Below, one piece after another: positions 1,580 to 38,933 of a stretch of 64,000 nucleotides of DNA. The position numbers and the translations under genes are program-made. The DNA is taken from assembly GCA_002441245.1 (NCBI GenBank), contig DJVP01000008.1, forward strand, positions 170,540 through 234,539. Direction: 5' to 3'. This stretch comes from Candidatus Omnitrophica bacterium UBA6253 (GTDB lineage: Bacteria; Omnitrophota; Gorgyraeia; Gygaellales; Profunditerraquicolaceae). A model generated the notes under the pieces. It did no database searches, was not told the DNA's origin, and saw nothing but the letters and a program-made list of their open reading frames with translations. Each line of letters opens with the position of its first letter. Positions within the stretch are counted from its first letter, which is position 1.

Positions 1580-1779
1580 TACCCAAGAATAGCCAAAACG
1601 GGCCAAAAATCTTATTAAAGATTATCTTCGCAAGTGTCCTAGTTTACAAAGCTTAAAATGAGGACTTCGCATCAATTGTCGCGTTTTCCTGTTGAGCGGG
1701 TTAAGTTAATGTAGTTATCCTATTTATGATATTAGTTGCGAAACAGCCTGCAAAGTAATTTTAGCTAAGGAGTAATTGA

Positions 1780-2559: not shown

Positions 2560-2560
2560 G

Positions 2561-5395: not shown

Positions 5396-5403
5396 GAATT
5401 GCT

Positions 5404-7743
5404 ATGAATGGATTATTTGTAATATTCAGGAAAAAGCTAGAAGAGACACACATTCGCAAGGAATTAAGAAGAATAAAAATGCGGATGATCTCTAATGGCG
5501 ATTTGAAGATTTGGCTTGATGATGCCAGTAGATTAAGGTTATTTTATAAAAATGTTGAATTAACCAAAGGTTATGGCTTAAGCTCTAGTATTTTATCCGA
5601 AGGGGTTTGGCACCATTCACATGAAACAGTTTTTGAAGCAGAGAAAATCTCCGAAAACCAGATGCGTATCTTTGTGTTTTTCCCGGGCATACCTATACAC
5701 CAGGAATGGTTGATAAAGATCGATTCTCGGGAGTCAATTAGTTATGAGGTTAACACAGAATTAATAGATAATATGCGGATAGATAATTTGAAAGCGGATT
5801 TTTTTATTTCAAAATCATATTTCCGTCGGGTATATAAATTAGAGGATGTAGTATTTCCACAGGAGTTCAATGCCTCTTGGAATATATTAAGCAATATGCC
5901 CAAAGATAACTTTATTGGCTGTACATCATTAAAGCCGGAGTACCCCAGTATATGTTTAGAATCTAGCAGTGGCGTTAAAAATTTATTTAGTGCAGGCAAT
6001 ACCGATTTCGTCTTGTCTTCCCGCGTACTTGAAGCCCAGATTGAAGAAATCGATGAATATCTCAAACCAGGGGTATATGAACATTTTAAAATCCATATAC
6101 AATTCTATCCGGATAAATCCGTGCTTGAAGATATGCTGGCTAAAATAAGAACTCAGAAGCAGCTTGAAGAGGAAAATCGAAAAAAAGGAGTGTTTGAGTA
6201 TTTCAAAAAAGAGCCGGCCGATCTTTTGTCGTGTAAAGAAGGCTGCATATATTTGTATGGAGATTCTGATCTTCTACATGATAAGATTAGCGGCGTACCA
6301 GGTGATTTTAACAAGATTATTGGAAAAATAAAAAAGATTGCGGGTAAGGGCTCATTTTATATCGGTGTATCGAGATATAATTTTTTCTGCCTGCATGTAA
6401 TTGCGCAGTATATTGCGGATATTATTGGCCAGCGCATTGATTTGCGTTCCCTTAATATAACTTTCTTGCCAGGCTGTAATCTTTACGCCAGCTTTGGTAT
6501 TTATTTGAATGAACTCACCCGGCGCTTAAGCCAGCATAAGATATATTTTTATCTAAAAGATACAGGTTTATTGGAGCTATTAGAAACTATATCCTCACAG
6601 GCTGATCAGTACAATGAAAGAGATCTATTGAGGCTGCTGGGGGTTATCGCGGAGCATCCTTTTATAGGCCCGCAGACGATAGTTCTGGATACGTATCATC
6701 AATGCAATACTGATTGTGTCCATTGCTGGATTCATACTCCTAGGCGTAAGAACCCCGGCCAGATAAGGGAGCTGGAAATGGATATCAATTTGTATAAACA
6801 GATCATAGATGATGCGGCAAAGATATTATGCGACGAGATTATCATCCAGGGCGATGGAGAACCTATGCTTGATGATAGGTTTATGGAGATGATCACTTAC
6901 GCCAGGAACAAAGGATTAAAAGTGCTCTTTTTTACAAACGGGATACTTTTAGATAAAAAGAAGGCGGCCGAGATAATCAATTTGGAGATAAATGAAATAT
7001 TCTGTAGCTTGCCCGCGGGTACGGCAAAGACATACGCCTTAATTAATTCAAAACAGTCTGAAAATTCATTTAGTCTAATTGAAAAAAATCTCAAGAATCT
7101 TATTGGTATGCGCAATAATGCGGGTAGAAGTAAACCTTTATTACAAATGACGCATGTTATACATAATTTAAACTACCATGAAATAGAAGAGATGGCCAGG
7201 TTTGATGCCTCTATTGGGGCAGATAAGGTAAGGTTCTATTTGGTAAGGCTGGACAATAATATTAAACCCTTGAAATTAAAATCCAGCCATATCAAAAGTA
7301 TCCAGGAATCCTTGGAACGCATAGAACCTTTTCTTAAAGCCAAAGGTATAGAGTTACAAGATAATATTCATTTTCAGCTTCAGCATTATAATCCAGAAAG
7401 CGGGGATTGGTCTGGGGAAACCTTTTCTAATATGGGTTGCCCGGTAGGGTGGTTTTTTTCGTTAGCATTATTCAAAGGAGAAGTAAGTATGTGTTGTCAT
7501 CTGCGCATAGTTGATATTTTAAAAGAAAAAAGTTTTGCGCAAATCTGGGATTCTGTTCGCTACAATGAAGTCCGAATTTATGCGAAATATCTGAATAAAC
7601 ATAAGAATGAACATTTTTTAAACGGAAGGAAGTTATTCGATGACTCTTGTCGGCATTGCGATACGCATCAGGTTATTCTAAGGATTAACCAGCTTATGAA
7701 CAAATATCACCTGGACAAATTTTATCAAGAGAGTTTTTTATGA
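5404..7743 (+). CDS. radical SAM protein with C-terminal Cys-rich (SPASM/twitch-like) region and ~420-aa N-terminal extension
   Basis: 779 aa. rSAM triad CNTDCVHCW at about residue 440. C-terminal cysteine clusters (MGCPVGW, MCCHLR, CRHCDTHQ). The N-terminus carries the ELTKG module (KIWLDDASRLRLFYKNVELTKGYG). Paralogous to the 33568 gene. Confidence 0.8.
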   Translation: MNGLFVIFRKKLEETHIRKELRRIKMRMISNGDLKIWLDDASRLRLFYKNVELTKGYGLSSSILSEGVWHHSHETVFEAEKISENQMRIFVFFPGIPIHQEWLIKIDSRESISYEVNTELIDNMRIDNLKADFFISKSYFRRVYKLEDVVFPQEFNASWNILSNMPKDNFIGCTSLKPEYPSICLESSSGVKNLFSAGNTDFVLSSRVLEAQIEEIDEYLKPGVYEHFKIHIQFYPDKSVLEDMLAKIRTQKQLEEENRKKGVFEYFKKEPADLLSCKEGCIYLYGDSDLLHDKISGVPGDFNKIIGKIKKIAGKGSFYIGVSRYNFFCLHVIAQYIADIIGQRIDLRSLNITFLPGCNLYASFGIYLNELTRRLSQHKIYFYLKDTGLLELLETISSQADQYNERDLLRLLGVIAEHPFIGPQTIVLDTYHQCNTDCVHCWIHTPRRKNPGQIRELEMDINLYKQIIDDAAKILCDEIIIQGDGEPMLDDRFMEMITYARNKGLKVLFFTNGILLDKKKAAEIINLEINEIFCSLPAGTAKTYALINSKQSENSFSLIEKNLKNLIGMRNNAGRSKPLLQMTHVIHNLNYHEIEEMARFDASIGADKVRFYLVRLDNNIKPLKLKSSHIKSIQESLERIEPFLKAKGIELQDNIHFQLQHYNPESGDWSGETFSNMGCPVGWFFSLALFKGEVSMCCHLRIVDILKEKSFAQIWDSVRYNEVRIYAKYLNKHKNEHFLNGRKLFDDSCRHCDTHQVILRINQLMNKYHLDKFYQESFL

Positions 7744-9926
7744 GAATAGCACTTGTTAATCTGCCCTGGTACAATTTATGCAGATCGGGTGTAAGGGCCG
7801 GGTCGCGCTGGCCACATTTGATGGCCCGGCATGAACGGGGTTATCTTCCCTACCCTTTTTTCCTGGCTTATGCAGCGGCATTATTAAAAGAGAATAATTT
7901 TGAAGTGATCTTGATTGATGCCATAGCCGAAGGTCTTTCTTACACCGTCTGCATCAACAGGTTGCGTAGCCTTAAATGCGATCTCTATGTTTTTGAAACA
8001 TCAACTGTAACCCTAAAGCATGATATCGGGCTCATAAAAAAAATAAACAAACATACCCCCGTAGTTATGTGCGGACCGGATGTAAATATACAAAAACCCT
8101 CTTTTATAAAGAATTATCCGTTTATTACTTATGTTATTTCTGGTGAATATGAATTAACTCTTTTGGATTTAGCCCGGCACATAAAGGATAAGAGAGGCTT
8201 AAGCGATGTCCCTGGGCTCATTTACCGTCTTGGAAGCAAAATAACTGTTAACCCATTGCGTGAACTCGCTGATCTAGATAAGCTTCCCTGGCCTTTACGG
8301 GAAGGCCTTCATATGACAAATTATAATGATGCTCCCGGTAATATGCCGCTTCCTTCGGTTCAGATGGTTGCCAGCCGGGGATGTCCTTATAGGTGCAAGT
8401 TTTGTCTTTGGCCGCAGGTGATGTATCAGGGGAACAATTACAGGTCTAGGGATGTTAAGGATGTAATAAAAGAAATGAAGTTTTTGGTGAACAATATGGG
8501 GTTTAAATCCGTATATTTTGATGATGATACATTTAATTGCGGCAAGCCCAGAATGCTTGCTTTTTGCGATGAGATTAAGAAGCAAGATTTGACAGATACC
8601 CCCTGGGCGATCATGGCCCGTCCTGACCTTATGGATGAGGAAATACTAATGAGGATGAAAGAGGCGGGGTTATATGCCGTTAAATATGGGGTTGAGTCGG
8701 CTACCCAGAGTTTACTTGATGGCATCAACAAAAATATGGATCTTAAGAAAACAGAGAAAATGATCCGTTTTACAGAGCAGCTTGGGATTAAAACTCATCT
8801 TACGTTTACATTTGGTCTACCGGGAGAGACAAGAGAGAGCATACGCAGGAGCATTAATTTCGCAATTTACCTTAATCCTGACTCTGTACAATTCTCCATA
8901 GCTACTCCGTTCCCGGGAACGGAATTTTACCGGGAAATTGAGACAAGTGGACTTCTTCTTACAAAGGAATGGTCAGAGTATGATGGTAACAATAAGAGCG
9001 TTATTTGTTCCGACAATTTAAGTAAAAAAGAATTAGAACAAAGTATCCGTGTTGCTTATGGCCGATGGCGCAACCATTATTTAAACAGGCGGTATCTTAA
9101 GGGGCAAAGGCTGAATATTTCTCTGCCCGGACTGGTTTTATTTTCTTTAAAAAGACGCGGAATATTTTTGACAGCAATAAAGCTGTTAAGTTTTTCATGC
9201 CTTCAGATTAAGGCACTTGTTTTAATAAGAATAAATCGGCTTATGGATATTTTTAAAAGAAGCTCTGGGCATCTAAATTCTATAGCTATGGGCAGGGTGG
9301 GGCTATTTTTTGACCACTCAGGAATACGCCTTTTTTGGGAGAATAAAGAACTTACCAGAGAAGATGGTTTTAGAAGTTGTAATGGTTTGCCAGAAGGCAA
9401 GAAAATAAAAAGCGGCGCATTTACGTTTGGGGATTTTAAGAAAGAGGCGGACAACCAGATTTCATTAAGGAAAAGATACGCCGATTCTGATATTGAAGAG
9501 GATTGGAAATTTGAGATCATTGATGAAAAGCAGATTGATTGGAGCGTTAAAGTACATAATAGGCATGGCGGTATAACTTCCGGCGAGTCAAGGCTTGCGC
9601 TTATTTTATCAGATGAATATCAAAAATGGTTAGATTCATGGGGGGAGGGCGGTTTTTATTCTGTTTTTGATAATCTTGAAGTTGAATTAAGAAACCCAAA
9701 AACAAAAATGGTTGGCGTGAGGGGGAGGAAAAAATTGACAAGGGAAATTCCGACTATACTATTAGATGCTGCTTCTAATAACGGTATAACTGCTTGTATA
9801 CGGAATAGCCCTGTTTTAGGGGCACGCATATTAGAGGTTAGACAGGCAGGGGATATTTTCTCCGCCCGGATAAAAATCGTAGAAGAAGGTTTTAATAAGC
9901 GCAAAAGACGCCCCGGGCCATTATAA
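7740..9926 (+). CDS. class B (B12-binding domain) radical SAM protein with ~250-aa C-terminal extension
   Basis: 728 aa. N-terminal Rossmann-like B12-binding region (MRIALVNLPWYN...EVILIDA). rSAM motif SRGCPYRCKFCLWP. The C-terminal extension contains GLFFDHSGIRLFWENKELTRE and DWKFEIIDEK modules. ATGA overlap with the upstream gene. Confidence 0.8.
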   Translation: MRIALVNLPWYNLCRSGVRAGSRWPHLMARHERGYLPYPFFLAYAAALLKENNFEVILIDAIAEGLSYTVCINRLRSLKCDLYVFETSTVTLKHDIGLIKKINKHTPVVMCGPDVNIQKPSFIKNYPFITYVISGEYELTLLDLARHIKDKRGLSDVPGLIYRLGSKITVNPLRELADLDKLPWPLREGLHMTNYNDAPGNMPLPSVQMVASRGCPYRCKFCLWPQVMYQGNNYRSRDVKDVIKEMKFLVNNMGFKSVYFDDDTFNCGKPRMLAFCDEIKKQDLTDTPWAIMARPDLMDEEILMRMKEAGLYAVKYGVESATQSLLDGINKNMDLKKTEKMIRFTEQLGIKTHLTFTFGLPGETRESIRRSINFAIYLNPDSVQFSIATPFPGTEFYREIETSGLLLTKEWSEYDGNNKSVICSDNLSKKELEQSIRVAYGRWRNHYLNRRYLKGQRLNISLPGLVLFSLKRRGIFLTAIKLLSFSCLQIKALVLIRINRLMDIFKRSSGHLNSIAMGRVGLFFDHSGIRLFWENKELTREDGFRSCNGLPEGKKIKSGAFTFGDFKKEADNQISLRKRYADSDIEEDWKFEIIDEKQIDWSVKVHNRHGGITSGESRLALILSDEYQKWLDSWGEGGFYSVFDNLEVELRNPKTKMVGVRGRKKLTREIPTILLDAASNNGITACIRNSPVLGARILEVRQAGDIFSARIKIVEEGFNKRKRRPGPL

Positions 9927-9938
9927 AAACACGATAAG

Positions 9939-11189: not shown

Positions 11190-11310
11190 TGGTGTCAACA
11201 AATTGGCAGAAATTTATAACATGCTGTAAAAACGGCGGATTATTTTATGCCTTCTATAAGGGTTTTAAATATTTAGCATGGCGTAATCAGTGCGCGCGTA
11301 AAAAGATTGA

Positions 11311-12432
11311 TTGGAGGCAATTCAGCAGATAGCTAGTTTTGTTGAATTTTATATGCGTTCATTACAATATATCAAAGAGATTGGAAGTATTGTAAGGGGA
11401 GAAGTAAGGGCGTTATTCCCTGTATTCTCTAGGCCTGCCTGTATGCCTCCTGATTTTGTTTGTATTGGTATTACAGACGCCTGCATGCTTAGATGTAAGA
11501 TGTGCCAGAAATGGAAAGAAGATATTTTTATAAAAGACAAAACAGGTGAGCCTGCAGTTGAAGATTGGAAGCGTGCTATTTCTTCGTTGCATAAGCTTAC
11601 TGTTAAACCATTGCAAATAAATTTCGGCGGAGGAGAACCGCTTTTAAAAAAAGAGATCTTTGAGTTGGTCAGTTTTTGCAAACAAAACGGGTTAAAAACT
11701 AATATTGCTACCAATGGCTATCTTATAAACAAGGAAATGGCTAAACAAATAGCTGATTCCGGTTTGGATAGTATTATTATTTCTCTGGATAGCCTTTGCG
11801 AAGATACCCATGATTACTTGCGGGGTAAAAACGGCACATACAGGCAGGTGATGAATGCTTTGGAGTTGCTTGATAAATCCTGCGAAGGGCTTTATAAGGG
11901 TTTATGTTGTGTTATTTATCAGAAAAATATGGAAGATGTTTTAGGATTAGAGGCTTGGGCAGAAAAGGATCAGCGGATTAACTCGGTCTATTTTATGGCA
12001 GCTATGCAGCCTAATAACACAGCGCCCGATATGCGCTGGTATGAAAAAGAAGAATTCCAGGCACTCTGGCCAAAAGACCCTGTCCGGGTAGGTGCGATTA
12101 TCGATGAACTTATAAAAATAAAAAGAGGCAGGTCGAAGATCACCAACCAGATATCTCAGCTGGAGGCGTTTAAGCATTACTATAAGCAACCTGACCGCTT
12201 TGTTAAGAGTTCCCAATGTAATATGGGTGCGGCGCTGCATTTTAGCTCTTCGGGGGATATTTTTCTCTGTTACCGGTGGCAAGTTTTAGGTAATGTAAAA
12301 ACCGATGACGTTGCCTCTGTCTGGAATTCCCGCTTGGCCAAAGAAGCGCGGTTTGATATAGCAGCCTGTAAGGATAACTGTCATTTTTTGCTTAATTGTT
12401 TTTTTAAAGAAGGATACTCTTTTAAAATATAA
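11311..12432 (+). CDS. radical SAM/SPASM-type protein, tandem paralog 1 of 11
   Basis: CMLRCKMCQKW triad, FGGGEPLL, SLDS, C-terminal NCHFLLNCFF. Start uncertain: TTG at 11311, or ATG at 11353. Confidence 0.8.
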   Translation: MEAIQQIASFVEFYMRSLQYIKEIGSIVRGEVRALFPVFSRPACMPPDFVCIGITDACMLRCKMCQKWKEDIFIKDKTGEPAVEDWKRAISSLHKLTVKPLQINFGGGEPLLKKEIFELVSFCKQNGLKTNIATNGYLINKEMAKQIADSGLDSIIISLDSLCEDTHDYLRGKNGTYRQVMNALELLDKSCEGLYKGLCCVIYQKNMEDVLGLEAWAEKDQRINSVYFMAAMQPNNTAPDMRWYEKEEFQALWPKDPVRVGAIIDELIKIKRGRSKITNQISQLEAFKHYYKQPDRFVKSSQCNMGAALHFSSSGDIFLCYRWQVLGNVKTDDVASVWNSRLAKEARFDIAACKDNCHFLLNCFFKEGYSFKI

Positions 12433-12471
12433 CCGGGACGGATGCGCTATTAGGATAAGAAAGGAATCATT

Positions 12472-13518
12472 ATGCAAAGCAGCTTAGATAAAAGATTTGA
12501 TTTAAAGAATAATCCTGGTTTTTTAAAGCCAGGTTTCTGTTGTATCGGCATTGTTGATACCTGCATGTTAGAGTGTAAGATGTGCCAGAAATGGAAGGAT
12601 GATCCTGGCACAAAGGGCATTTCTCAACCGACAACAGATCAATGGAAGATTTTTATCAGCCAATTGCGTGATTTGGTAGATGAGGGTTTTGAAATTGATT
12701 TTGGCGGCGGAGAAGCATTAATGAGACCGGATCTTTTAGAGCTGGTCTCTTATGCAAAGGGTCTGGGGTTTAGAAACGCGATAGCTTCCAATGGCTACCT
12801 GATTAATGACGAGATGGCCAAAAGGATAGTAGATTCTGGTTTAGACAGCATAGTTTTATCTCTGGATAGTTTAAAACCTGAAATTCATGATAGTATGCGT
12901 GGCAAAAAAGGCGTTACCGAAAGGGTTTTTAAGGCCATTGAATACCTAAGAAAATATTCAAAAGATATACACATAGGGATATGCACAATAATTATGGAGC
13001 AAAGCTTGGACGGTATTATTGATTTGGCGGAATGGGTAAATACAAATAGGGATAAGATGAATTCTATTTTGTTTATGGCTCCCATGCAACAGAATAATAC
13101 ACCTTGCGATCTGGAATGGTTTAAGAAAGCTGAATATAATTTTATCTGGCCAAAAAACAGTAAAAAGGTTCAGGATGTCCTTGATGAACTAATCAGGCGC
13201 AGAAAACTGGGCCACTGGATAGGTGATTCTATCCCGCAGTTAGAGGCCTTTAAATTATATTTTCAGAATCCCGCTAAATTCGTAAAAAATAACCCGTGTA
13301 ATTTAGATAGAGCCGTGCATGCCAGTTCAATTGGAGATATATATTTATGCTACCGCTATGGCGTGCTTGGCAATATTAAGAATGGAGATGATCTCAGGCA
13401 GATATGGAACTCGCAGGTGGCCAGTAAAGTCAGAGGCGAAGTAAGGCAGTGCGATGATAATTGTCATTTTCTACTCAACTGTTTTTTTGAGGGTGATTAC
13501 CCTTTTGGCGTGAAATAA
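12472..13518 (+). CDS. radical SAM/SPASM-type protein, tandem paralog 2
   Basis: CMLECKMCQKW, FGGGEAL, NCHFLLNCFF. SD AAGGAA upstream. Shares an identical 23-nt stretch with paralog 1. Confidence 0.85.
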   Translation: MQSSLDKRFDLKNNPGFLKPGFCCIGIVDTCMLECKMCQKWKDDPGTKGISQPTTDQWKIFISQLRDLVDEGFEIDFGGGEALMRPDLLELVSYAKGLGFRNAIASNGYLINDEMAKRIVDSGLDSIVLSLDSLKPEIHDSMRGKKGVTERVFKAIEYLRKYSKDIHIGICTIIMEQSLDGIIDLAEWVNTNRDKMNSILFMAPMQQNNTPCDLEWFKKAEYNFIWPKNSKKVQDVLDELIRRRKLGHWIGDSIPQLEAFKLYFQNPAKFVKNNPCNLDRAVHASSIGDIYLCYRYGVLGNIKNGDDLRQIWNSQVASKVRGEVRQCDDNCHFLLNCFFEGDYPFGVK

Positions 13519-14522
13519 TGAAGGTAAAAGGGATAAGACATAAGCTTACTGTAGCAATATTGAGCGTAATTTTATTTTTTGGCACATTTGAAGTCGCGCT
13601 AAGAATTATTAAATTCCACGTAAACCAGACAAACCAGTATTTTAAATTTGCAAGTTTTTATTTTGTTCCCGATAAATCTGTACCTATAGAGCTTAAAGAC
13701 CCTTACTTATTCTGGAGTAATTATAAACATGAATATTTTCGAGGGCGGCATCATCCTTTAGTAAAACCAAAAGATACCTTTAGAATTATTTGTATGGGGG
13801 ATTCGATTACTCAGGGTTGGGCACCATATAATATTAAGTTTAACGAGACTTATCCTTATATGTTAGAAGAATTATTCCATAGTAACAAGATGAATAATCT
13901 TGAGGTTATAAATGCGGGAACCGGTGGGTATACTTCTTTTCAAGGATTGCGTTTTTTAAAGAGGGATTTATTAAATTACGATCCGGATTTATTAATTATA
14001 TGGTTTGGCATAAATGATGCAGACAATGCTATTTTATTTATCGATAAAGAACAGAAGATGTGCAATAAAACAATTAAAAGATTGGATGCTTTCTTAAGCC
14101 ACAGTAAATTTTATCAGCTTTATCAGCAGGTACTGTTTCGTCTTGCCTCTTGCAGGTGGTTTGATAAAAAAAGGGTTTCTGGGGAAGACTATTGTAATAA
14201 TCTGAGGGAGATGGCAAATCTAGCCAAGAAAAATAATATTACTCCGGTTTTTATTATTCCTTTCCTGAGATTCGGTTCCGAGGTGTTGTCGTATAAAGAA
14301 ATGAAAGATTACAAGAAATATGCAGAGATCTTCAATGAATTTTCAAATAAAGGTATTATAGTAGTAGATTTAAGCCTCCTTTTTAAAGGCAAGGAAGATC
14401 TTGATTCTTATTTTATTGATAGGTGCCATCTTGCCTTAAAAGGCAATAGGCTGGTATCTGAAGATATTTACGACATATTAACGGGCAGAGGAATTATAAG
14501 TAATACCAAGAAAGGATATTGA
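13518..14522 (+). CDS. SGNH/GDSL-family hydrolase (esterase/acyltransferase-like), N-terminal membrane anchor
   Basis: 334 aa. Block I ICMGDSITQGW, N-terminal TM helix. TAATGA overlap with the upstream gene. Confidence 0.7.
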   Translation: MKVKGIRHKLTVAILSVILFFGTFEVALRIIKFHVNQTNQYFKFASFYFVPDKSVPIELKDPYLFWSNYKHEYFRGRHHPLVKPKDTFRIICMGDSITQGWAPYNIKFNETYPYMLEELFHSNKMNNLEVINAGTGGYTSFQGLRFLKRDLLNYDPDLLIIWFGINDADNAILFIDKEQKMCNKTIKRLDAFLSHSKFYQLYQQVLFRLASCRWFDKKRVSGEDYCNNLREMANLAKKNNITPVFIIPFLRFGSEVLSYKEMKDYKKYAEIFNEFSNKGIIVVDLSLLFKGKEDLDSYFIDRCHLALKGNRLVSEDIYDILTGRGIISNTKKGY

Positions 14523-14523
14523 C

Positions 14524-15570
14524 ATGGTCGACCAACGGGAAGCCGATGAGAAAGTGGATATTTTGGGTAAAGCTAATATTTTAAAACCCGCATTCTGTTG
14601 CGTAGCTGCCACGGATTACTGTATGCTGCGCTGCAAAATGTGTAATAAATGGTCAGAGCCAATACCTAAACCGGAAGAGTTGCCGTCTATAGCAGAATGG
14701 AAGCGTTTTATAACCGGGTTCCGGGAGCTTGTTGATGAACAGTTTGAAATGGATTTTGGGGGAGGAGAAGCGCTTTCAATGCCCGGCATCCTTGAGATGG
14801 TCAGGCATGCAAAGGATTTGGGTTTTAAGACTACTATGGCGTCAAATGGCTATTTGATCAATAAGGAGATGGCTATTAAAATAGCTGATTCAGGCCTTGA
14901 TGCGGTCAGCCTTTCTTTGGATAGCCACCGTGCGCAGTTACACGATAAGATGCGCGGCGTAGAAGGCGTCTATCAGCGGGTAATGGAGGCCATAGATAAT
15001 ATATCAAAGTATTCAAAGCATACCCGTAAAGGGCTATGTTGTATTATTATGGATGAAAATATTGACGATATATTGCCTTTGGTGCAGCTTGCTGATAAGA
15101 ACCCTAAAATCGACTGGATATATTTTATGGTTGTGGTCCAACCCAATTACAGTGGTCCGTTAACCGATGATTGGCGGGATGAATATAAATATCTTTGGCC
15201 CAAGGATAAGGTAAAAACAATTGCCTTGCTTGATGAATTGATCCGGCTAAAGCAAAGTAATTCAAAGGTGAGCAACAGGGTAGAACATCTGAGGGCTTAT
15301 AAAGCCTATTTTAATAATCCGCAAAAACTGGTCAATAAAGCGCGTTGTATTGTTGGTGGCAGGGCGATCAGTATAAACTCTTATGGATTTGTGCAACTGT
15401 GCCTTTTTAAAGATTTTATTGGTAACATCCGGAAACAGGATATCCGGGATATCTGGCGCTCTCAGGATGCAGAGGTGATCAGAAAGCAGGTGGATCAGTG
15501 TAAAACCAATTGTCATTTACTTCTTAACTGTTGCTACATAGAGGATGAACCATCGCTTTATTCTTCATAA
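14524..15570 (+). CDS. radical SAM/SPASM-type protein, tandem paralog 3
   Basis: CMLRCKMCNKW, FGGGEAL, NCHLLLNCCY. Confidence 0.85.
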   Translation: MVDQREADEKVDILGKANILKPAFCCVAATDYCMLRCKMCNKWSEPIPKPEELPSIAEWKRFITGFRELVDEQFEMDFGGGEALSMPGILEMVRHAKDLGFKTTMASNGYLINKEMAIKIADSGLDAVSLSLDSHRAQLHDKMRGVEGVYQRVMEAIDNISKYSKHTRKGLCCIIMDENIDDILPLVQLADKNPKIDWIYFMVVVQPNYSGPLTDDWRDEYKYLWPKDKVKTIALLDELIRLKQSNSKVSNRVEHLRAYKAYFNNPQKLVNKARCIVGGRAISINSYGFVQLCLFKDFIGNIRKQDIRDIWRSQDAEVIRKQVDQCKTNCHLLLNCCYIEDEPSLYSS

Positions 15571-15579
15571 CCAACCATT

Positions 15580-16587
15580 ATGGATAAAGGCCGATTTTTA
15601 GAAAAACCGCGTTACTGTTGTTGGGTGCTTAATTATCGCTGCATGTTCCGGTGTAAAACCTGTTATATCTGGAATGTTAAAGATAATAAGGGTGAGGAGA
15701 CGTCTTTAGAGCAAAAAAAACAGTTTGTAAAATCTTTACGAGGATTTGTTGGGCCGGATTTCGAATTCCACTTATCGGGTGGAGAGCCCTTGTTGACCGA
15801 GGGCATAATTGAATTGATTGATTTTATTTCCTCTGAAGGGTATAAAACTAACCTGGTTACAAATGGTTTTCTTGTCAATGATGCCATGGCCAGGTCAATT
15901 GTTTCCAGCGGGCTGGGAACAATTACTTTTTCGCTTGATGGCAGGAAAGCCTCTACGCATGATTTCCTGCGCGGTGTTGATGGCAGTTATGAAAAAATAA
16001 TGCAGGCGATCGGCTATATAGACAAATGCCGTAAAAATCGGAAACCCGCCATATCCATACTTACAATTATTATGGAGCGCAATCTTAAAGAATTGTTGGA
16101 TTTGGCTGAATGGGCTAATAATGACAAGCGGCTGGAGATGATAAGTTTTCAGGCGATTACCCAGCCGTTTTGTGAGGCCACGAACAGCGATTGGTTTTTT
16201 GAAGAGAAAAACAACTTTCTTTGGCCTCAGGACGCTGCCTCAGCCGTGGCACTTATGGAGAAGTTGCGCGACTTTAAGCTTAAGGGTTATAAAATAGGCA
16301 ATCATCCCAATCACTTCTTGCATTTTAAGGGATATTTCGAGAATCCGCAGCAATTCTTAAAAAAGATAAAATGTAATCTCGGAGATTATGAGTTCCATAT
16401 AGATCCTTATGGCAAGGAATTTTTCTGTTGTTTTATGGAGCCATTCGGTAATATTAAAACCGGGAATCTGCCTGAAATTTGGCATTCTCCAGCAACTCAA
16501 GGTATACGAGAAAACGTGTATTATTGTAAGAAAAATTGCCATATTATGGTTAATTGTTTCTATGAAGATGAAAAAAGTACTACGTAA
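15580..16587 (+). CDS. radical SAM/SPASM-type protein, tandem paralog 4
   Basis: CMFRCKTCYIW, SGGEPLL, NCHIMVNCFY. Confidence 0.85.
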   Translation: MDKGRFLEKPRYCCWVLNYRCMFRCKTCYIWNVKDNKGEETSLEQKKQFVKSLRGFVGPDFEFHLSGGEPLLTEGIIELIDFISSEGYKTNLVTNGFLVNDAMARSIVSSGLGTITFSLDGRKASTHDFLRGVDGSYEKIMQAIGYIDKCRKNRKPAISILTIIMERNLKELLDLAEWANNDKRLEMISFQAITQPFCEATNSDWFFEEKNNFLWPQDAASAVALMEKLRDFKLKGYKIGNHPNHFLHFKGYFENPQQFLKKIKCNLGDYEFHIDPYGKEFFCCFMEPFGNIKTGNLPEIWHSPATQGIRENVYYCKKNCHIMVNCFYEDEKSTT

Positions 16588-17884
16588 CTTGATATTCATA
16601 TCCTTACCAAGCATTTTTATTTTTTTGCTTATATTTGAACTCTTTTTGAGAGTAGGCGGTTGGGTATATCTTTGGCAGCGCCATCCGGAAACGTATAAGA
16701 AGGCAATGAGTTACGGGCAACAAAATAAATTCACTATTTTATGTTTAGGTGATTCGTTTACCGAAGGAGCCGGCACGGACAGAAACAATAGCTATCCTAA
16801 GCAGTTGGAGAAAATATTACTTAAAAATATAACCGGAGTAAATATAAATATAATTAATGGAGGGCGAGGAGGGAATAGTTCGTCCTTACTTTTAAAGTAT
16901 TTGCCGGTCGACCTGCTCCGGTATAACCCTGACATCGTATTAATAATGATAGGTTGTAACAATGTATGGAATTTTCAAGACAGCAGCTATTTTATTATAA
17001 ATAAGAAAGGAGGATATTTAATTCAGAATTTAGATAGTTTATTAACTAATCTGCGCACGTATAAAATGTTAAAGTTAGCCTACTTTAATACTAAAGCTTT
17101 TTTAAACACCGGGCTTAAGAAATCCCATGAAGATTATAATGAATTTTATGAATTTGCAGAAGCTGTTGATAGTATGAATGCAGATAAAAGATCAAAAGCA
17201 CTTACTAAATCTGCTGTCGCCAGTAGCCAGGATGGTAATTTTGATCTGGCCTTAAATCAATTGCAAGATGCGCTGGCTATCGATGGAAACAACTATATTG
17301 CTCATATTTGTATGGGGAATCTGTGGACAGGAAAAAAGGAGTTTGAATTAGCAAGGGCATCAAGGTTGCAGGCAATCCATATGATCCATAGATGGAATCA
17401 ATTTTTGGTTACAAGTATGATTGCGCAAATTGACCGTGAAACAGAAATGGATATGGTTAACAAAAAAGAGGTATTAGACGAGTTGGCAGTAATAAAAAAA
17501 GCGGTAGAGGTTTCTCATAAAACCAATACCGGGGATAACGCTATTGCATTAATAGAAGCAAAAATTAATTCGATAAAAGACAGATCTGTTATTCAGAAAA
17601 TTATAGAGTATGATTTAAGCCGGGCAATAAAGATAGCCAGGAATAGCGGGGCGCAAGTTGTTTTAGAAACCTATCCTTTCCGGAGTTTTATAAATATTTT
17701 CCGTGAGATAAGCGAAAGGTTCAGCGTTCCCTTAGTGGATAACTATGCAGTATTTAAGAAAGAGCAATTGTCGCAGTATCTTTTTGTTCCGGATGGACAT
17801 TGTAACGCGAAAGGTTACGGAATAATAGCCGAAAACACATATAAGACATTAATTAAATATAACCTTTTGCCCGGCAATAGATAA
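16562..17884 (+). CDS. SGNH/GDSL-family hydrolase with TPR-like helical insert
   Basis: LCLGDSFTEGAG block I after an N-terminal TM helix. TPR-like helices in the middle (ALNQLQDALAIDGNNYIAHICMGNLW). Start placed at the ATG for MKMKKVL. The ORF-track start at 16409 would overlap the upstream gene. Confidence 0.65.
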   Translation: MKMKKVLRNLIFISLPSIFIFLLIFELFLRVGGWVYLWQRHPETYKKAMSYGQQNKFTILCLGDSFTEGAGTDRNNSYPKQLEKILLKNITGVNINIINGGRGGNSSSLLLKYLPVDLLRYNPDIVLIMIGCNNVWNFQDSSYFIINKKGGYLIQNLDSLLTNLRTYKMLKLAYFNTKAFLNTGLKKSHEDYNEFYEFAEAVDSMNADKRSKALTKSAVASSQDGNFDLALNQLQDALAIDGNNYIAHICMGNLWTGKKEFELARASRLQAIHMIHRWNQFLVTSMIAQIDRETEMDMVNKKEVLDELAVIKKAVEVSHKTNTGDNAIALIEAKINSIKDRSVIQKIIEYDLSRAIKIARNSGAQVVLETYPFRSFINIFREISERFSVPLVDNYAVFKKEQLSQYLFVPDGHCNAKGYGIIAENTYKTLIKYNLLPGNR

Positions 17885-17901
17885 TTAATTTGCGATTTTA
17901 C

Positions 17902-19179: not shown

Positions 19180-19250
19180 GGTGGAATAAGCAGTATATTA
19201 TATCCGATTATTTTTATGCAGCTGGTTTTGTAATACGGGAGGAGGATAGG

Positions 19251-20249: not shown

Positions 20250-20312
20250 TCATCCAGGGTTTAATTAATATGGGATTTTATATGCATGATATTTATAACT
20301 TGAGAGGATGGA

Positions 20313-23017: not shown

Positions 23018-23020
23018 CCG

Positions 23021-24950: not shown

Positions 24951-24970
24951 AAATTTAACCGAGAACCTCT

Positions 24971-25966: not shown

Positions 25967-25991
25967 ATTAATGTCCGCAGAAGGAATAAAA

Positions 25992-27362: not shown

Positions 27363-27365
27363 ATA

Positions 27366-28340: not shown

Positions 28341-28362
28341 GCCTCCTACCTATTTTACTGGA

Positions 28363-30171: not shown

Positions 30172-30233
30172 TAATCTCTTCGCGTTTTGGTATAATTTTA
30201 TCATTTTGATTTATATCGAGGGCAAGTAGGCTA

Positions 30234-31682
30234 ATGAAAATACTTTTAATTACACCTCCCATTTTTAAAAACAATAGCAGTCAGATTTGGACAAACCGTA
30301 TTAGGCGGGGTTTCCTGCCCCCCTTGGGTATTGGTTACCTTGCTGCAGTCTTGATTCAAGATGGGCATATGGTTAAGATAATAGATTCTCAGGGGATGGG
30401 TTATGACGTAGGCAAGGTTATCTCTGGGGTAAGAAGTTACGGGCCTGATGCCCTGGGAGTCTCTTTTTTAACGCCCCAGGAGGATGATGCATATAAAATA
30501 ATAAGCGAAATAAAGAAATATTTTAAAGATATCCCGGTTATCGTTGGAGGGGCGCATCCAAGTTGTTTCCCCCAGGAAACAATGGAAAGATGTAAGGAGA
30601 TCGATGTCTTGGTTGCCGGCGAAGGTGAATATATTATGCTTGATATAATCCACTGTTTAGAAAAAGGCGGCGCATTAAAAGACGTAAAAGGAATTTATTT
30701 CCGGAACGACAATGGGGGAGTCTTAAAAACCTCGAAAGACTGCCAGGTGGTTGATTTGGATACGTTGCCTTTTCCTGCCCGCCATCTTTATAATTTAGCA
30801 TCTTATGCCCCCGAGCCTTTTGAAAATAAACGTTTGCCATCGACAAGCATGGTTGTTTCCAGGGGCTGCACTTATGCCCAGTGTACATTTTGTTATCGTT
30901 CCGGTATTTTAAAAAAACAATATAGAATCCAAAGCGCCGAGAAAACTATAGATGAGATACGCTACCTGGTTAAGAATTTCGGAGTCAAAGAGTTCATATT
31001 TTATGATGATAGCCTGTTATCAGACAAAAAATGGATAACAAGCTTTCTTAGGTTATTGAAAAAAGAAAGAATTCTGATTTCATGGTCTTTCCGCGGCAGG
31101 TCAGATGCGGTTGAGCTTGATATTTTAGAAGAGGCAAAAGAAACAGGTTGTTTTAGTATCGCTTTTGGATTTGAATCAGGGAATCAGGACCTTCTTGATA
31201 ATATTAAGAAGGGGATTACTTTAGAGCAAAGCAGGCGCGCAGCCAGTTTAGCCAACAGCGTAGGATTGGAGGTTGTAGGCACATTCATGCTGGGGTTACC
31301 CGGGGAGACTCCAAAAAAGGCAGAAAAAACAATAGAATTTGCTATAGATCTCGATTGTACTTATGCCGCTTTTATACCAACACATCCTTTTCCGGGGACT
31401 GAACTATATGATCAATGCCGGGAAAGAGGGGAGATTGTAGAAAGTCCTTATTCGGATGAAGTGCGGCATTCAAGGTATATTCCAAGGATAGCCTATATAC
31501 CGTCCGGATACAAGAATAAAGAAGAGCTTTCAGGAATGGTAATAAATGCTTACAAAAGATTTTATCTTCGCTCAGGCTTCTTTTACAAGCATATTAGAAA
31601 GATTAATAGTCTTGAAGACATAAAAAGATATTGGGATGGAATTACTTTCTTTCTCGGGTTATCTTTAAGCAGGGGATCATGA
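30234..31682 (+). CDS. class B (B12-binding) radical SAM protein
   Basis: N-terminus MKILLITPP...LGIGYLAAVL..VKIIDSQ (B12-binding-like). rSAM motif SRGCTYAQCTFCYRS. Confidence 0.8.
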   Translation: MKILLITPPIFKNNSSQIWTNRIRRGFLPPLGIGYLAAVLIQDGHMVKIIDSQGMGYDVGKVISGVRSYGPDALGVSFLTPQEDDAYKIISEIKKYFKDIPVIVGGAHPSCFPQETMERCKEIDVLVAGEGEYIMLDIIHCLEKGGALKDVKGIYFRNDNGGVLKTSKDCQVVDLDTLPFPARHLYNLASYAPEPFENKRLPSTSMVVSRGCTYAQCTFCYRSGILKKQYRIQSAEKTIDEIRYLVKNFGVKEFIFYDDSLLSDKKWITSFLRLLKKERILISWSFRGRSDAVELDILEEAKETGCFSIAFGFESGNQDLLDNIKKGITLEQSRRAASLANSVGLEVVGTFMLGLPGETPKKAEKTIEFAIDLDCTYAAFIPTHPFPGTELYDQCRERGEIVESPYSDEVRHSRYIPRIAYIPSGYKNKEELSGMVINAYKRFYLRSGFFYKHIRKINSLEDIKRYWDGITFFLGLSLSRGS

Positions 31683-32374: not shown

Positions 32375-32506
32375 ATAATTTTGTTTATATTATAGCTAGG
32401 GGCAGGATAAAATTGCCCGAAATAACTTAGCTGGTATGGAAGGGGCAATTCAGCCCTATTTAAAATATGCAGAATGTGCCTTTTAAGCTATTAATCAGGA
32501 TAATAA

Positions 32507-33496: not shown

Positions 33497-33567
33497 CACG
33501 TTAATGGATAAAAACGTAATTTGTTGGGGAGCGTATAAATCAAGATTGCGGGAGGTCATAAATAATT

Positions 33568-35271
33568 ATGAATAGTTACAGGGTAAGATTTTTATTAAGA
33601 AAACTAAATATTTTTTCAATTGAGCTAAGAAGCTCCTCCCTGAAGAGTATGAGGCAGTTATTTGCTAGCCCATTTAAAGCCAATCGTTACCTGCGGGCTT
33701 TTTTAAAATATAATATGGTTTTTGCCCCAAAGGCGCCGATAACAGAAAAAAACCCAAAACTTTCAGTAAACAATTTTAATTTATTTGGCGATTTTGAAGA
33801 GTTGCATAATAGGATAGCGGGAACAGAGGAAGATTTTGCAAAGATTATCGCGCAGATAAAAAAGCTTGCGGTTAAAGGTCGAGAGGTCAAGATAACCATC
33901 GGTCTTTCAAGGTATAATTTTGCGCGGCTGAATAAAATGGCTGAATTCCTTATGTTTCTTTTAGGGGAAAAAATAGACCTTTCTTCAATTGAGCTTAAGC
34001 TTTTTCCGGTAAAAGACCTAGCAGAAAATGTTTTTAGATATATTGAAAGTATTAAAAAGCAAATAGATAACAAAAAAATAGAAATATCGTTTTATGACAA
34101 CCAATTAATGGATATTCTTAATACAGTAAGCCTGCATGCTAAGGTAGACCCCGGCAGGGAAAGGAATCTGCTAAGGCTTTTAGGAATAATTAGCGAGCAG
34201 GTTTTTATCGGTCCGCAAACAATTGTTTTTGATCCGTTCCACCGTTGTAATACAAAATGCCAGCATTGCTGGGTTCATACTCCCGGAGTAAAACATCCGG
34301 AGGAATTCCTCGAGCGTAAATTTGATTTTGAGCTTTTTAAAAAGATAATTGATGATGCCTCTGGAATGATGACTGATGGAATTATCCTCCAGGGCGATGG
34401 TGAACCGCTAATGTATGATAAATTCATGCCTATGCTCAGATACGCGCGCAGCAAGAAATTGGGGGTATTATTTTTTACGAACGGGATCTTGCTCGATGAG
34501 GAAAAATCAAAGGAGGTGATAGAATTAGGGGTCAATGAGATTTACTGTAGTTTTCCTGCCGGCAGCGCTGAAACTTATGCCAAAATCTCCACAGTTCAGC
34601 CCGGAGATACTTTTTATAAAGTGCGCGATAATTTAAAGAGGTTTATGGAGCTTAGGAGAAAATCCGGAAACAGTCAACCTCGACTGATTGTCAGCCATGT
34701 TATTCATACTCTTAATTATCACGAATTGATAGAAATGGCCAAAATGGATGCCCATATTGCTCCGGATGCGGTGCGTTTTTACCTGATCAGACTTGATGTT
34801 ATGAACAAATTCCTGCAATTAAAACCCCATGAAATAGAAATAATCAAAAAACAGGTCCCGGAAATCTCACGGATACTTGAAAAAAATAACATTGAGCTTG
34901 TCAACAATTTTGAATTTCAGCTTGACCATTATGATGAAAAGACCGGCGCCTGGTCGAAAGATTTCTTTTTAAGCCATGGTTGCACAATCGGTTGGTATTT
35001 CAATCTTATCCCCGCTAAATATGATATGAGTTTTTGCTGCCATTTGCGCACCGTCGGATACCTGGACAAAAGATCATTTAAGGATGTATGGAATTCAACT
35101 GAATACTGGCGATGGAGAAGGCAGGCTAAATATCTCAAGGATAATAAATTCGCGCGGTTTGCTAATGGGCAGCTGCTATACGATGAACATTGTGATCACT
35201 GCGATAACCACCAGACAATTATCAAAACAATGAATGAATTGAAAAAATACGATTTATATAAATACTACTAA
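33568..35271 (+). CDS. radical SAM protein with Cys-rich C-terminal region and ~220-aa N-terminal domain (paralog of the 5404 gene)
   Basis: CNTKCQHCWVHTP triad, GPQTIVFDPFHR, C-terminal CCHLR...CDHCDNHQ. The N-terminal domain matches the middle part of the 5404 gene (GLSRYNFARL versus GVSRYNFFCL). Confidence 0.8.
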   Translation: MNSYRVRFLLRKLNIFSIELRSSSLKSMRQLFASPFKANRYLRAFLKYNMVFAPKAPITEKNPKLSVNNFNLFGDFEELHNRIAGTEEDFAKIIAQIKKLAVKGREVKITIGLSRYNFARLNKMAEFLMFLLGEKIDLSSIELKLFPVKDLAENVFRYIESIKKQIDNKKIEISFYDNQLMDILNTVSLHAKVDPGRERNLLRLLGIISEQVFIGPQTIVFDPFHRCNTKCQHCWVHTPGVKHPEEFLERKFDFELFKKIIDDASGMMTDGIILQGDGEPLMYDKFMPMLRYARSKKLGVLFFTNGILLDEEKSKEVIELGVNEIYCSFPAGSAETYAKISTVQPGDTFYKVRDNLKRFMELRRKSGNSQPRLIVSHVIHTLNYHELIEMAKMDAHIAPDAVRFYLIRLDVMNKFLQLKPHEIEIIKKQVPEISRILEKNNIELVNNFEFQLDHYDEKTGAWSKDFFLSHGCTIGWYFNLIPAKYDMSFCCHLRTVGYLDKRSFKDVWNSTEYWRWRRQAKYLKDNKFARFANGQLLYDEHCDHCDNHQTIIKTMNELKKYDLYKYY

Positions 35272-35401
35272 TTTATATCTATGCGCACCCCGATAAAGTT
35301 TTTTCTTGTCTTTTGCCTTTTTTTGCTGTCACTGATCATGGATTCGTGTCTGTATCTTCTTAAGAAATTAAAAAAGATCATTATTTTCCCCGGGGGTTGA
35401 T

Positions 35402-36589: not shown

Positions 36590-36614
36590 TATATTCAACG
36601 AATATTAAATAACA

Positions 36615-38933
36615 ATGAATAAAAGATTAGAAAAAGATTGCAGAGGGAAAATTAACTGGGGTATATATTCTTTAGTGGCGATTATTTTGTTTCATTTTAT
36701 AAATAACCTTATCTGGCTTCATTTAGATCAAACATATCTTTTGGATGATGCTCATTGGCACTTTTTATTCAGCTTGAGAGTTTTTGACTTCTTAAGAGAA
36801 CGCATTTTTCCGTCCTTGGCCGAAATTTCCAATAATTATTTTGCTTTTAGGTGGCATGGGATTCTAGTTGGATATTTAACTGCTCCTTTCTATTTTATCT
36901 TTGGCTTAACTCAAGACTCGGCAGTCATAATAAGCAGCTCAATTTTCCTGTCTATCCTTGTGCTTTCTATCTATGGAGTTGGAAAGACTCTTTTTGATAA
37001 AAGGACGGGTCTTTTATCAGCATTTTTGGTATCTATGTATCCTTTGGTATTTAACCATATGAGAACGTACATGCTAGACCTTCCCTTGACTTCTATGGTT
37101 GTTTTAAGCGTTTTCCTGCTTTTAAAAACCGAAGGTTTTACTAGTAGAAAGTACTCTTGCCTTTTTGCTGTTATCTCCGGCCTTGGTTTACTGATAAAAT
37201 TCAATTTTGCCATTTTTATCTTAGGTCCACTGGCTATAATTATTTACAAACTCTTGAGGAAAAATGGCTTTAAACAGACATGGCGAAACATGGCCTTGGT
37301 ACTTTTTATTATAGTTTTAATCTCCTTTAGATTTTATGGACTGAAATTCTGGGAGGTAGCTAATCGTATCTATAGTTGTTCTTGGTTTTATACGATTAAT
37401 TTTTATCCCAGAATTTCTTTTATTTATATTCTGCAGAATTATCTAACGGTGGGCAAGGATTATCTATTCTTTTTCCTGAGGGATTGTTTTAATAATTCTG
37501 TTTCGCCTATGCTGTTTATTTTGTTTTCCTTCGGAATCTTTGCCAATAATAAACACAGGGGGATCTTATTTGCCTGGTTAGGTTTTCCGGTATTTTTATT
37601 AGCCTTTTTATTTTACTATCCCGATCAAAGCAGGTATTTCATGCCGGTTTTGCCGGTTTTAGCCTTGATTTCTAGTGCCGGAATTATGACATTACAAAGC
37701 GTAAAATTAAGGCGAATGTTTATAACCTTGGTTGTTGGCTTAGGCTGCTTCCAGTATTTTGCCATATCTTACAGAATTGATTTTTTGCCTAAACAAATTC
37801 AAATGAAAATCCCGCTAGGGCATAATAGGTCTTTGCCCATTATGGTGTTTAAAAGAGATTTAGATATGGGGTTTAGGAGCGGAGTAGATACTTTTTCTTA
37901 TCCTGCAAGGATAGAGGATAAAAACAAAGAATTGCTTAATGAGATATTAGAAAACTCAAATAACTTGCAAAACAAAATTAATGTATTTTTTATGGGTAGT
38001 AACGTTCGGATTTATCAACCGTTTATATATGAGGCTTTTGTCAGAAAATTGCCTATCGCTATTAATTATGTTCCTCTTAGCGAAGAAGAGAAATATAAGG
38101 ATCAGACATTAGAGGTATATAATATATTAAGGGCGGATTATGTAGTTGTTACAAGGGGGCGGCGCAATCAGGGTGCACCACTTTTTATAAAAAAGAGATT
38201 AGAGGAATCAAGCCTGTTCTTTGAAAGAAATATTGGCAAGTTTAAATTGATAAAGGAATTCAATTTTACTAATGGGGACTCACTTTTATTGTATAAGAAG
38301 AAAAATCAAAACTATTCCAGAATTGTCAAAAATAATTTAGAAGTTTTTTTCAAAGATGGCATTGTAAGGATAGTTTATCATGGCAAAGAGATAACAAGCA
38401 ATGTTGGTTTAGAGGTTTCGTTTACGTTAGAAGGAAAGCATTATTCCAATCCTTATTTTCAGTGGAGCAGCGAATTCGTAAGCCATAAGAGTCTGATAAT
38501 TTATGCCAAAGCTGAAGATTTGCCTTTGTTGATGAAGTGGGAACTTAGCCTTGAGAATAGCCGAAAGATAGACTGGAAAGTAAGTATTGATACATTGCTT
38601 AAAAATAAAATTGATAATTTATATTTAACCCTATTTTTAACACCAAGATATACGGAATGGGAGAGTTTTTTGGGAAAAAAAGAATTTGGTTCAAGGAATA
38701 TACATGTTTTTGAAGAAATTAGGCTGCTTGATTCAAGAACAAAATCAGTTATCTTGTATAGCTCAAAAGAAAAGACTCTTCCAAAGATAATGTTTTCTGC
38801 TGACAATTATTCGGATGTTCTGCCTTTCGTTAAATGGAGAAATGATTTAAGGGGCATCGGATTTTATGTAAAAACAAAAAGCCAGCCTTTGGATAAACAA
38901 AACATTTTTTCTGGAATTATTTCTTTTAAATAG
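36615..38933 (+). CDS. GT-C fold membrane glycosyltransferase (GT39/ArnT/PMT-like) with ~330-aa C-terminal soluble domain carrying ELTKG-type module
   Basis: N-terminal polytopic region with a first-loop DD motif (HLDQTYLLDDAHWHF). The C-terminus contains FFKDGIVRIVYHGKEITSNVG and MKWELSLENSRKIDWKV, both similar to the Wzt C-terminal modules. Confidence 0.7.
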   Translation: MNKRLEKDCRGKINWGIYSLVAIILFHFINNLIWLHLDQTYLLDDAHWHFLFSLRVFDFLRERIFPSLAEISNNYFAFRWHGILVGYLTAPFYFIFGLTQDSAVIISSSIFLSILVLSIYGVGKTLFDKRTGLLSAFLVSMYPLVFNHMRTYMLDLPLTSMVVLSVFLLLKTEGFTSRKYSCLFAVISGLGLLIKFNFAIFILGPLAIIIYKLLRKNGFKQTWRNMALVLFIIVLISFRFYGLKFWEVANRIYSCSWFYTINFYPRISFIYILQNYLTVGKDYLFFFLRDCFNNSVSPMLFILFSFGIFANNKHRGILFAWLGFPVFLLAFLFYYPDQSRYFMPVLPVLALISSAGIMTLQSVKLRRMFITLVVGLGCFQYFAISYRIDFLPKQIQMKIPLGHNRSLPIMVFKRDLDMGFRSGVDTFSYPARIEDKNKELLNEILENSNNLQNKINVFFMGSNVRIYQPFIYEAFVRKLPIAINYVPLSEEEKYKDQTLEVYNILRADYVVVTRGRRNQGAPLFIKKRLEESSLFFERNIGKFKLIKEFNFTNGDSLLLYKKKNQNYSRIVKNNLEVFFKDGIVRIVYHGKEITSNVGLEVSFTLEGKHYSNPYFQWSSEFVSHKSLIIYAKAEDLPLLMKWELSLENSRKIDWKVSIDTLLKNKIDNLYLTLFLTPRYTEWESFLGKKEFGSRNIHVFEEIRLLDSRTKSVILYSSKEKTLPKIMFSADNYSDVLPFVKWRNDLRGIGFYVKTKSQPLDKQNIFSGIISFK

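Follow-up and report, generated by a model that had tools for sequence, protein, structure and literature searches.

A protein module present in six copies is shared among four proteins encoded on the 64,000-nucleotide stretch of DNA from Candidatus Omnitrophica bacterium UBA6253 analysed here (contig DJVP01000008.1, positions 170,540 to 234,539; hereafter the window). Three copies lie in tandem in a Wzt-like ATP-binding cassette (ABC) transporter ATPase, and one copy each is carried by a radical S-adenosylmethionine (SAM) enzyme with a SPASM domain, by a B12-binding radical SAM enzyme, and by a membrane glycosyltransferase of the GT-C type. The module is an unannotated domain family that takes the place of the canonical recognition domain of Wzt and is shared with tailoring enzymes. 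It most probably serves as a non-catalytic glycan-recognition domain common to the exporter and the tailoring enzymes, a reading to which we give a probability of roughly 60%. Wzt exporters check their cargo by means of one small jelly-roll domain; in the proteins described here a larger domain of a different fold, in arrays of two to eight copies, would perform this check, and the enzymes presumed to modify the cargo carry the same domain, on both sides of the membrane.

The six copies are homologous. The module measures about 215-230 amino acids (aa), and six segments of about 220-245 aa align collinearly from end to end. All-against-all BLASTP of the non-catalytic parts of the proteins found three repeats in the tail of Wzt and a similarity far longer than 100 aa. 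In leave-one-protein-out profiles the withheld copies scored 32.4-74.1 bits, whereas 500 shuffles of each copy, all preserving its composition, gave 8.2 bits at best. HHalign comparisons between host-specific sub-profiles, built from non-window homologues only (first Wzt copy, last Wzt copy, and the copies borne by radical SAM/SPASM, GT-C, and B12-radical SAM proteins), returned a probability of 100% and E values of 1e-38 to 2e-50 over 213-234 columns, and because of these scores and E values the similarity stands far above chance. A six-frame scan of the window detected no seventh copy and nothing else above 8 bits; weak extra copies, considered in the other three GT-C proteins and in those radical SAM proteins that have long N-termini, were rejected, as none exceeded that value. 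A sequence-only reading of the same DNA had proposed a shared module of about 100 aa on the basis of eight peptide strings, all of which are present within a few bases of where it had placed them (4751-4807 and 4259-4285 in Wzt, 5506-5577 and 5701-5733 in the radical SAM/SPASM enzyme, 9300-9362 and 9501-9530 in the B12-radical SAM enzyme, and 38346-38408 and 38532-38582 in the GT-C protein). The sharing is borne out, as are, by their domain matches, the identities it gave to the four host proteins, while the length is roughly double, the earlier reading having covered the N-terminal half only. Its four to six instances are exactly six, the two Wzt strings falling in different copies (R3 and R2, respectively), and its starting point at position 5506 misses the Wzt copies, the real span being about 3254-38927. 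The HHalign test of significance above low-complexity, K/E-rich background, failure of which it had named in advance as refuting the proposal, came out in its favour (E 1e-38 to 2e-50), and two of the checks it had proposed, a profile search and a structure prediction, yielded a family of 598 cluster representatives and a confident all-beta model with a galactose-mutarotase-like supersandwich.

The Wzt-like ATPase (2561..5395, 944 aa; ABC_tran, E 6.8e-21), like all window features below unless otherwise indicated, is encoded on the forward (+) strand and carries its three tandem modules after the hinge. Upstream lie its permease partner Wzm, of the ABC-2 type (1780..2559; Pfam PF01061, ABC2_membrane, E 5.5e-15), and a GT4-type (Glycos_transf_4, WecA/MraY-type) polyprenyl-phosphate priming transferase (449..1339; Pfam PF00953, E 2.4e-30). 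With a Wzt/TagH-related ATPase, an adjoining ABC-2 permease, and a priming transferase in the cluster, the system is a Wzm/Wzt-type (ABC-2) exporter. The nucleotide-binding domain and hinge of Wzt occupy about aa 24-245 (ABC_tran aa 31-162), and the TagH/Wzt models of NCBIfam match aa 26-232 only, with E values of 3e-56 to 1e-44, all of them under the curated cut-offs. The best match in the Protein Data Bank (PDB) is Aquifex aeolicus Wzt (8dku, 7k2t; E 9e-63), again restricted to query aa 24-245, and TarH and TagH follow as further matches of the ATPase domain (E 1e-51 to 9e-44). The alignment with A. aeolicus Wzt stops at query aa 245, which corresponds to chain residue 255, and the first module copy, R1, begins at about aa 232-237; since the match ends at the hinge, the module array starts where the canonical binding domain would. 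R1 (3254..3934; 177 bits with the A2 profile) has as its nearest relatives the first copies of other Wzt proteins, R2 (3995..4651; 172 bits with the A2 profile) the second copies, and R3 (4724..5389), the copy used for the structure model, is closest to the last copies.

We know of no report of the canonical Wzt domain, which binds the cap at the non-reducing end of the polymer and is needed for export, on tailoring enzymes. This domain (PF14524, Wzt_C, of A. aeolicus, E. coli O9a, and R. terrigena) is a jelly-roll that dimerises by exchange of its C-terminal strand, and its expected task is to pick out the completed polymer for export (PMC9445017). The module resembles it in lying directly after the Wzt ATPase and hinge, but PF14524 matches neither the whole Wzt at E<=0.1 nor any of the six copies at E<=10. 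The two also differ in size, the canonical domain comprising about 150 aa (chain residues ~256-404 of a 404-aa Wzt) and the module about 220 aa, and in fold, the model of the module predicting a supersandwich in place of the strand-swapped jelly-roll dimer. Wzt_C is present in one copy whereas the module forms tandem arrays of 2-8, and the module is found on radical SAM and GT-C proteins as well, a kind of sharing that PMC9445017 does not report for the canonical domain.

The first of the two radical SAM hosts in the window (5404..7743, 779 aa in the window) consists, in order, of an N-terminal module, a 150-aa linker domain (aa 266-415), the radical SAM core (Radical_SAM, aa 431-600), and a SPASM domain (aa 679-752). 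Its module (5470..6117) scores 194 bits with the A2 profile and 74 bits when left out, and its nearest relatives are copies on other radical SAM/SPASM proteins. The linker domain has no match in Pfam and is retained together with the module and the radical SAM core in other organisms. In the version of this gene found in GCA_028718365.1 (L001 12844-16098), which is identical apart from its greater length, there are two module copies with a EEEARRRQEEIKRKQL tandem repeat between them, and the window contains at 6156..6174 the junction of a 915-nucleotide (nt) deletion or assembly collapse relative to it, recognised from the common prefix and suffix with their 19-nt overlap. As the tails of the two GCA_028718365.1 copies are identical, the window version looks like an assembly repeat collapse or a recombinational deletion. 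A 76%-identical relative (L004) likewise has two copies, its frame being split into overlapping open reading frames (ORFs) at 12019-13134 and 12987-15683. A paralogue of the enzyme in the window (33568..35271; Radical_SAM and SPASM domains) shares the linker, the linker probe scoring 80 bits over about aa 71-208 of the protein (numbered 73-210 in the stop-to-stop ORF 33562-35268), and gives no match to the module profile; it is the natural comparison partner for the module-bearing enzyme.

The second radical SAM host (7740..9926) has B12-binding and Radical_SAM domains and a C-terminal module (9270..9923; 140 bits with the A2 profile, 68 bits when left out). It is HpnJ-like, matching the HpnJ model with an E value of 7e-74 and 249 bits as against a family cut-off of 578. 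HpnJ is a hopanoid-associated enzyme thought to contract the ring of glucosamine to a cyclitol. Another B12-radical SAM protein, at 30234-31682, also matches HpnJ best (E 2e-63, far under the family cut-off), and judged from these sequence matches the HpnJ-like pair hints at carbocycle-forming or C-methylating chemistry on sugars.

The fourth host is a PMT_2 (GT39-type) membrane glycosyltransferase of the GT-C class (36615..38933; PMT_2, E 1.2e-14), a relative of which bears in the database only the name 'glycosyltransferase family 39 protein [Candidatus Omnitrophota bacterium]'. About 11 transmembrane helices are followed by a spacer of about 150 aa and by the C-terminal module (38301..38927; 149 bits with the A2 profile, 73 bits when left out), which groups with other GT-C-borne copies. 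A hydropathy scan of the single sequence was too noisy, and a profile averaged over 11 homologues was used instead; it displays 11 hydrophobic spans behind a K/R-rich N-terminus. The first long loop bears a DD motif (YLLDDAHW), and in the later loops short K/R-rich ones (2.5-3.7 K+R per sequence) strictly alternate with K/R-poor ones, the tail ending outside. The N-terminus is thus predicted to lie inside and the C-terminal module in the periplasm, matching GT-C architecture in general, where the soluble domain at the C-terminus lies in the periplasm. By contrast, the radical SAM enzymes and the ATPase domain of Wzt are cytoplasmic. Copies on both sides of the membrane favour a ligand that itself crosses it, i.e. 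the polymer, and direct contact of the GT-C copy with the Wzt or radical SAM copies is ruled out if the predicted topology is right.

When AlphaFold2 was run on the six window copies alone, the model was poor, with a predicted local distance difference test score (pLDDT) of 55.9. With 59 more diverse copies added, Wzt-R3 was modelled with a pLDDT of 92.7 and a predicted template modelling score (pTM) of 0.90, and the resulting model is all-beta, with about 20 strands and without any helix of four or more residues. On this model the module has the galactose-mutarotase-like supersandwich fold. The structural neighbours of the R3 model, at 4-13% sequence identity, are mostly carbohydrate-acting proteins, the superfamily including aldose 1-epimerases, accessory domains of glycoside hydrolases (GH38, GH97, GH15, GH2, GH94, and GH65), polysaccharide lyases, and OpgG/OpgD; YidC P1 and PnsB2 have the same fold and no known sugar ligand. 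Although the modelled fold is that of the superfamily, the module matches no Pfam family of its clan, and its hosts are an ABC ATPase, radical SAM enzymes, and a GT-C protein rather than glycoside hydrolases. Nor did any of the six copies match any other Pfam family, many carbohydrate-binding module (CBM) families included, and NCBIfam and a profile search of PDB sequences contained nothing matching the module. Over 384 module copies, the conserved polar columns comprise Thr (90%), Ser (77%), Gln (76%), Asn (77%), and Arg (80%), and the conserved aromatic columns Tyr (88%), four Trp (68-87%), and a fifth Trp (60%); Gly, Pro, and Phe are also conserved. Read from the alignment columns, this set of aromatic and polar residues would fit a surface that binds sugar. 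The 40 most conserved columns include no His, Glu, or Asp.

Beyond the window, 1.84 billion cluster representatives were searched exhaustively with HMMER, and 598 proteins were recovered at E<=1e-3, of which 472 also passed E<=1e-10 and 226 passed E<=1e-30; a word-indexed protein search with the 6-copy and 65-sequence alignments returned one fragment only (P0001). Architectures were assigned for the best 150 of the 598, using the module profile and probes made from the window's own catalytic domains. About 85 of these 150 consist of a Wzt ATPase followed by 2-5 modules, or by eight in one case, and about 36 are fragments with modules only. Eleven are GT-C proteins with the spacer and then 2-4 modules, about ten are radical SAM/SPASM proteins that lack the ATPase domain and combine 2-4 modules with the conserved 150-aa linker and the core, and four are B12-radical SAM proteins whose one or two modules lie at either terminus. 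The hosts are also fused to one another. P0058 unites B12-radical SAM and radical SAM/SPASM domains, with one module after each, and P0013 and P0097 are single polypeptides in which an ATPase is followed by five or two modules, the linker, and radical SAM/SPASM, P0013 being one unbroken frame of 1865 codons that adjoins GT4-type and Wzm genes (L006). Since the copies cluster by position and by host protein across organisms, the module is a long-standing constituent that these proteins have maintained and not the product of recent shuffling in this genome.

Gene order is conserved along with the architectures. Six independent loci extend far enough downstream, and in every one of them radical SAM genes follow the module-bearing Wzt or are fused to it. 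The recurrent core comprises a GT4-type gene, in many cases a flavoprotein gene, Wzm, a module-bearing Wzt, and then radical SAM genes, some of which themselves carry modules. Wzt has three copies in L004 and L008 and eight in L013, each with radical SAM genes downstream, and five in L011, where a B12-radical SAM gene with an N-terminal module comes next; L006 encodes the fusion protein P0013. The GT4-type gene lies upstream of Wzm/Wzt in L006, L011, and L012. Directly after the module-bearing B12-radical SAM gene of L011, a 1447-aa protein of three to four fused radical SAM/SPASM units is encoded (16349-20692), so that small radical SAM/SPASM paralogues which are separate genes in the window are there joined in one chain.

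The proposal of the sequence-only reading that a shared substrate-binding domain links the radical SAM chemistry to the exported polymer is favoured by every computational test capable of contradicting it, and from these we infer that the module binds glycan. Of the two kinds of ligand it had offered, carbohydrate or lipid carrier, the former is favoured and the latter disfavoured. If one polymer serves all copies, the pathway may run as follows. The GT4-type transferase would prime a polyprenol-linked glycan, which is built in the cytoplasm, and the module-bearing radical SAM/SPASM and B12-radical SAM enzymes would dock on the nascent polymer via their modules and tailor it. The three modules of Wzt, in place of the canonical carbohydrate-binding domain, would then recognise the polymer in its finished or tailored state, probably by multivalent contacts, and this recognition would select it for export through Wzm/Wzt. 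After export, the GT-C protein would hold the same polymer by its periplasmic module and add sugars from polyprenyl-phosphate donors. A bolder version, which we put forward only tentatively, is that the module acts as a glycan recognition element marking proteins for one lipid-linked polymer, recruiting radical SAM enzymes in the cytoplasm, gating export, and guiding the GT-C enzyme; Wzt would in this case accept the tailored product only. Were this so, a widespread uncharacterised pathway would exist in uncultivated anaerobes such as the Omnitrophota, whose radical chemistry would take a polysaccharide chain as its substrate in place of a nucleotide sugar or a peptide. No account of such a Wzt domain or cluster type was found in the literature, though subscription journals were not covered and the absence is thus no proof. 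As a signature of 598 representatives unnamed in Pfam and NCBIfam, the module could be used to find a conserved radical-SAM-rich glycan pathway in uncultivated bacteria and gives a handle on the substrates of these radical SAM enzymes, which are otherwise unpredictable; being small soluble domains, the modules could also be used as bait for the polymer.

Other systems offer partial parallels to such an arrangement. The RiPP (ribosomally synthesised and post-translationally modified peptide) recognition element, which is PqqD-like, is a small winged helix with a three-stranded sheet that binds the leader peptide and stands N-terminal to a radical SAM/SPASM core. The likeness is a functional analogy only, in that an N-terminal recognition domain brings a polymeric substrate to the radical SAM/SPASM site; the fold of the module is unrelated, its presumed ligand is a glycan, and the same domain is present on the exporter and on GT-C. 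In the bolder version above, the module would extend to polysaccharides the logic by which RiPP pathways employ leader peptides and recognition elements. Tandem CBMs are non-catalytic beta-sandwiches that target enzymes to polysaccharide and raise avidity. The module would likewise be a non-catalytic beta-sandwich in tandem arrays, but its hosts are biosynthetic or export proteins and not degradative ones, and most copies are cytoplasmic. Extracytoplasmic glycan modification is carried out by three-component systems in which a GT-C enzyme uses polyprenyl-phosphate sugar donors (PMC11127046). In the window the module-bearing GT-C gene similarly shares the cluster with small GT2 genes, a pairing that recurs in L007 and L011; the three-component systems are not known to have a C-terminal supersandwich module in common with an exporter.

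Several observations weigh against recognition of a common glycan. The pairwise identity among the six window copies is just 17-24% and several of the conserved polar positions vary between them, so that they may not all bind one epitope. Most radical SAM genes of the cluster (23 of 25) carry no module, and the topology of the GT-C protein derives from simple hydropathy and positive-inside analysis rather than from a dedicated predictor. The alternative that survives best, though we consider it unlikely, is an assembly scaffold in which the modules attach to one another or to the Wzt ATPase and thereby dock the radical SAM enzymes at the transporter's cytoplasmic face. The canonical Wzt binding domain does dimerise and touch the ATPase domain (PMC9445017), fusions of ATPase, modules, and radical SAM domains exist, and it can be argued that the modules always occur in tandem arrays. 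The copies are, moreover, position-specific and divergent, as expected of specific protein interfaces, and the fold is shared by YidC P1 and PnsB2, for which no sugar ligand is known. A scaffold on the cytoplasmic face, however, leaves the predicted periplasmic GT-C copy out of reach of the Wzt and radical SAM copies, and it does not accommodate L007, in which a GT-C gene with two modules lies beside a GT2 gene with no module-bearing Wzt and no radical SAM gene within 13 kb. The conserved Trp, Tyr, Gln, Asn, and Arg are typical of sugar sites, and most structural neighbours act on carbohydrates.

The fold also raises the question of whether the module is itself a catalyst, i.e. a mutarotase, an epimerase, or an enzyme cleaving or transferring glycan on the polymer, which appears very unlikely. 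A catalytic His and Glu define aldose 1-epimerase. Neither is conserved in the module, and the lack of any conserved His, Glu, or Asp over the 384 copies disfavours catalysis of the mutarotase type; 2-8 tandem copies per protein would be unusual for a catalytic domain, and the matched mutarotases (270-380 aa) are longer than the module with its roughly 220 aa. That it recognises the undecaprenyl-pyrophosphate end or the membrane surface instead of the sugar chain is most improbable. A lipid-linked end would likewise be encountered on both sides of the membrane, though no result points to it in particular; a single lipid anchor cannot be contacted by every member of a soluble array of up to eight copies, no hydrophobic or amphipathic segment was seen in what is modelled as an ordinary soluble beta-sandwich, and the structural neighbours bind sugar and not lipid. 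Chance resemblance of K/E-rich low-complexity sequence without any true module, to which pairwise identities of 17-26% might lend some colour, is refuted by the leave-one-out scores (32-74 bits against at most 8.2), HHalign, the 598 members, and the single confident fold.

The window as a whole is one same-strand cluster. Besides the GT4-type priming transferase, Wzm, and Wzt, it encodes 25 Radical_SAM ORFs, four GT-C proteins of the PMT_2 type, three proteins each of the GDSL type and the U32-like kind, GT1 and GT2 enzymes, and an epimerase, a methyltransferase, and a flavoprotein. The radical SAM ORFs lie between 5404 and 63845, about 16 of them with a SPASM and about 7-9 with a B12-binding domain, and none passes any NCBIfam family cut-off; such a density of radical SAM genes inside a Wzm/Wzt glycan cluster is remarkable. 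Positions 1-5403 are identical to contig JAQUMA010000002.1 of GCA_028718365.1 (L001), and a query with a single protein identified two close relatives (70-76% identity) in metagenome-assembled genomes labelled Candidatus Omnitrophota and uncultured Planctomycetales. The only breaks in the cluster are the ~440-nt gaps at 1339-1780 and 50424-50865 and the sole sizeable minus-strand ORF of the window (49573-50424, minus strand), which encodes 283 aa with a weak match to DUF7411.

The flavoprotein (52498-53847) has Amino_oxidase/NAD_binding_8 domains, is PRK07208-like, and weakly matches UDP-galactopyranose mutase. It recurs in L006 (1436-2725), L011 (7919-9232), and L012 (3594-4886), in other organisms mostly between the GT4-type gene and Wzm, and looks like a core component of the pathway. 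The stretch at 42535-48009 encodes a DUF362 protein and, after it, three tandem peptidase-U32-like paralogues (44640, 45819, and 46987); in each of the three, the match to the U32 model spans only about 65 of its residues. Members of the U32 family such as UbiU/UbiV are oxygen-independent hydroxylases, and the window proteins could therefore hydroxylate the product anaerobically. GDSL/SGNH-type proteins are encoded among the radical SAM genes at 13518-14522, 16409-17884, and 17890-19179, one of them with a tetratricopeptide repeat (TPR), and a similar gene adjoins Wzm in L008; because ORF 16409-17884 shares 179 nt with the ORF before it, its actual start probably lies farther downstream. TPR domains are also fused to radical SAM domains, both in the window (25971-27362) and in the distant L008 (19803-22325), and thus represent a recurring appended domain.

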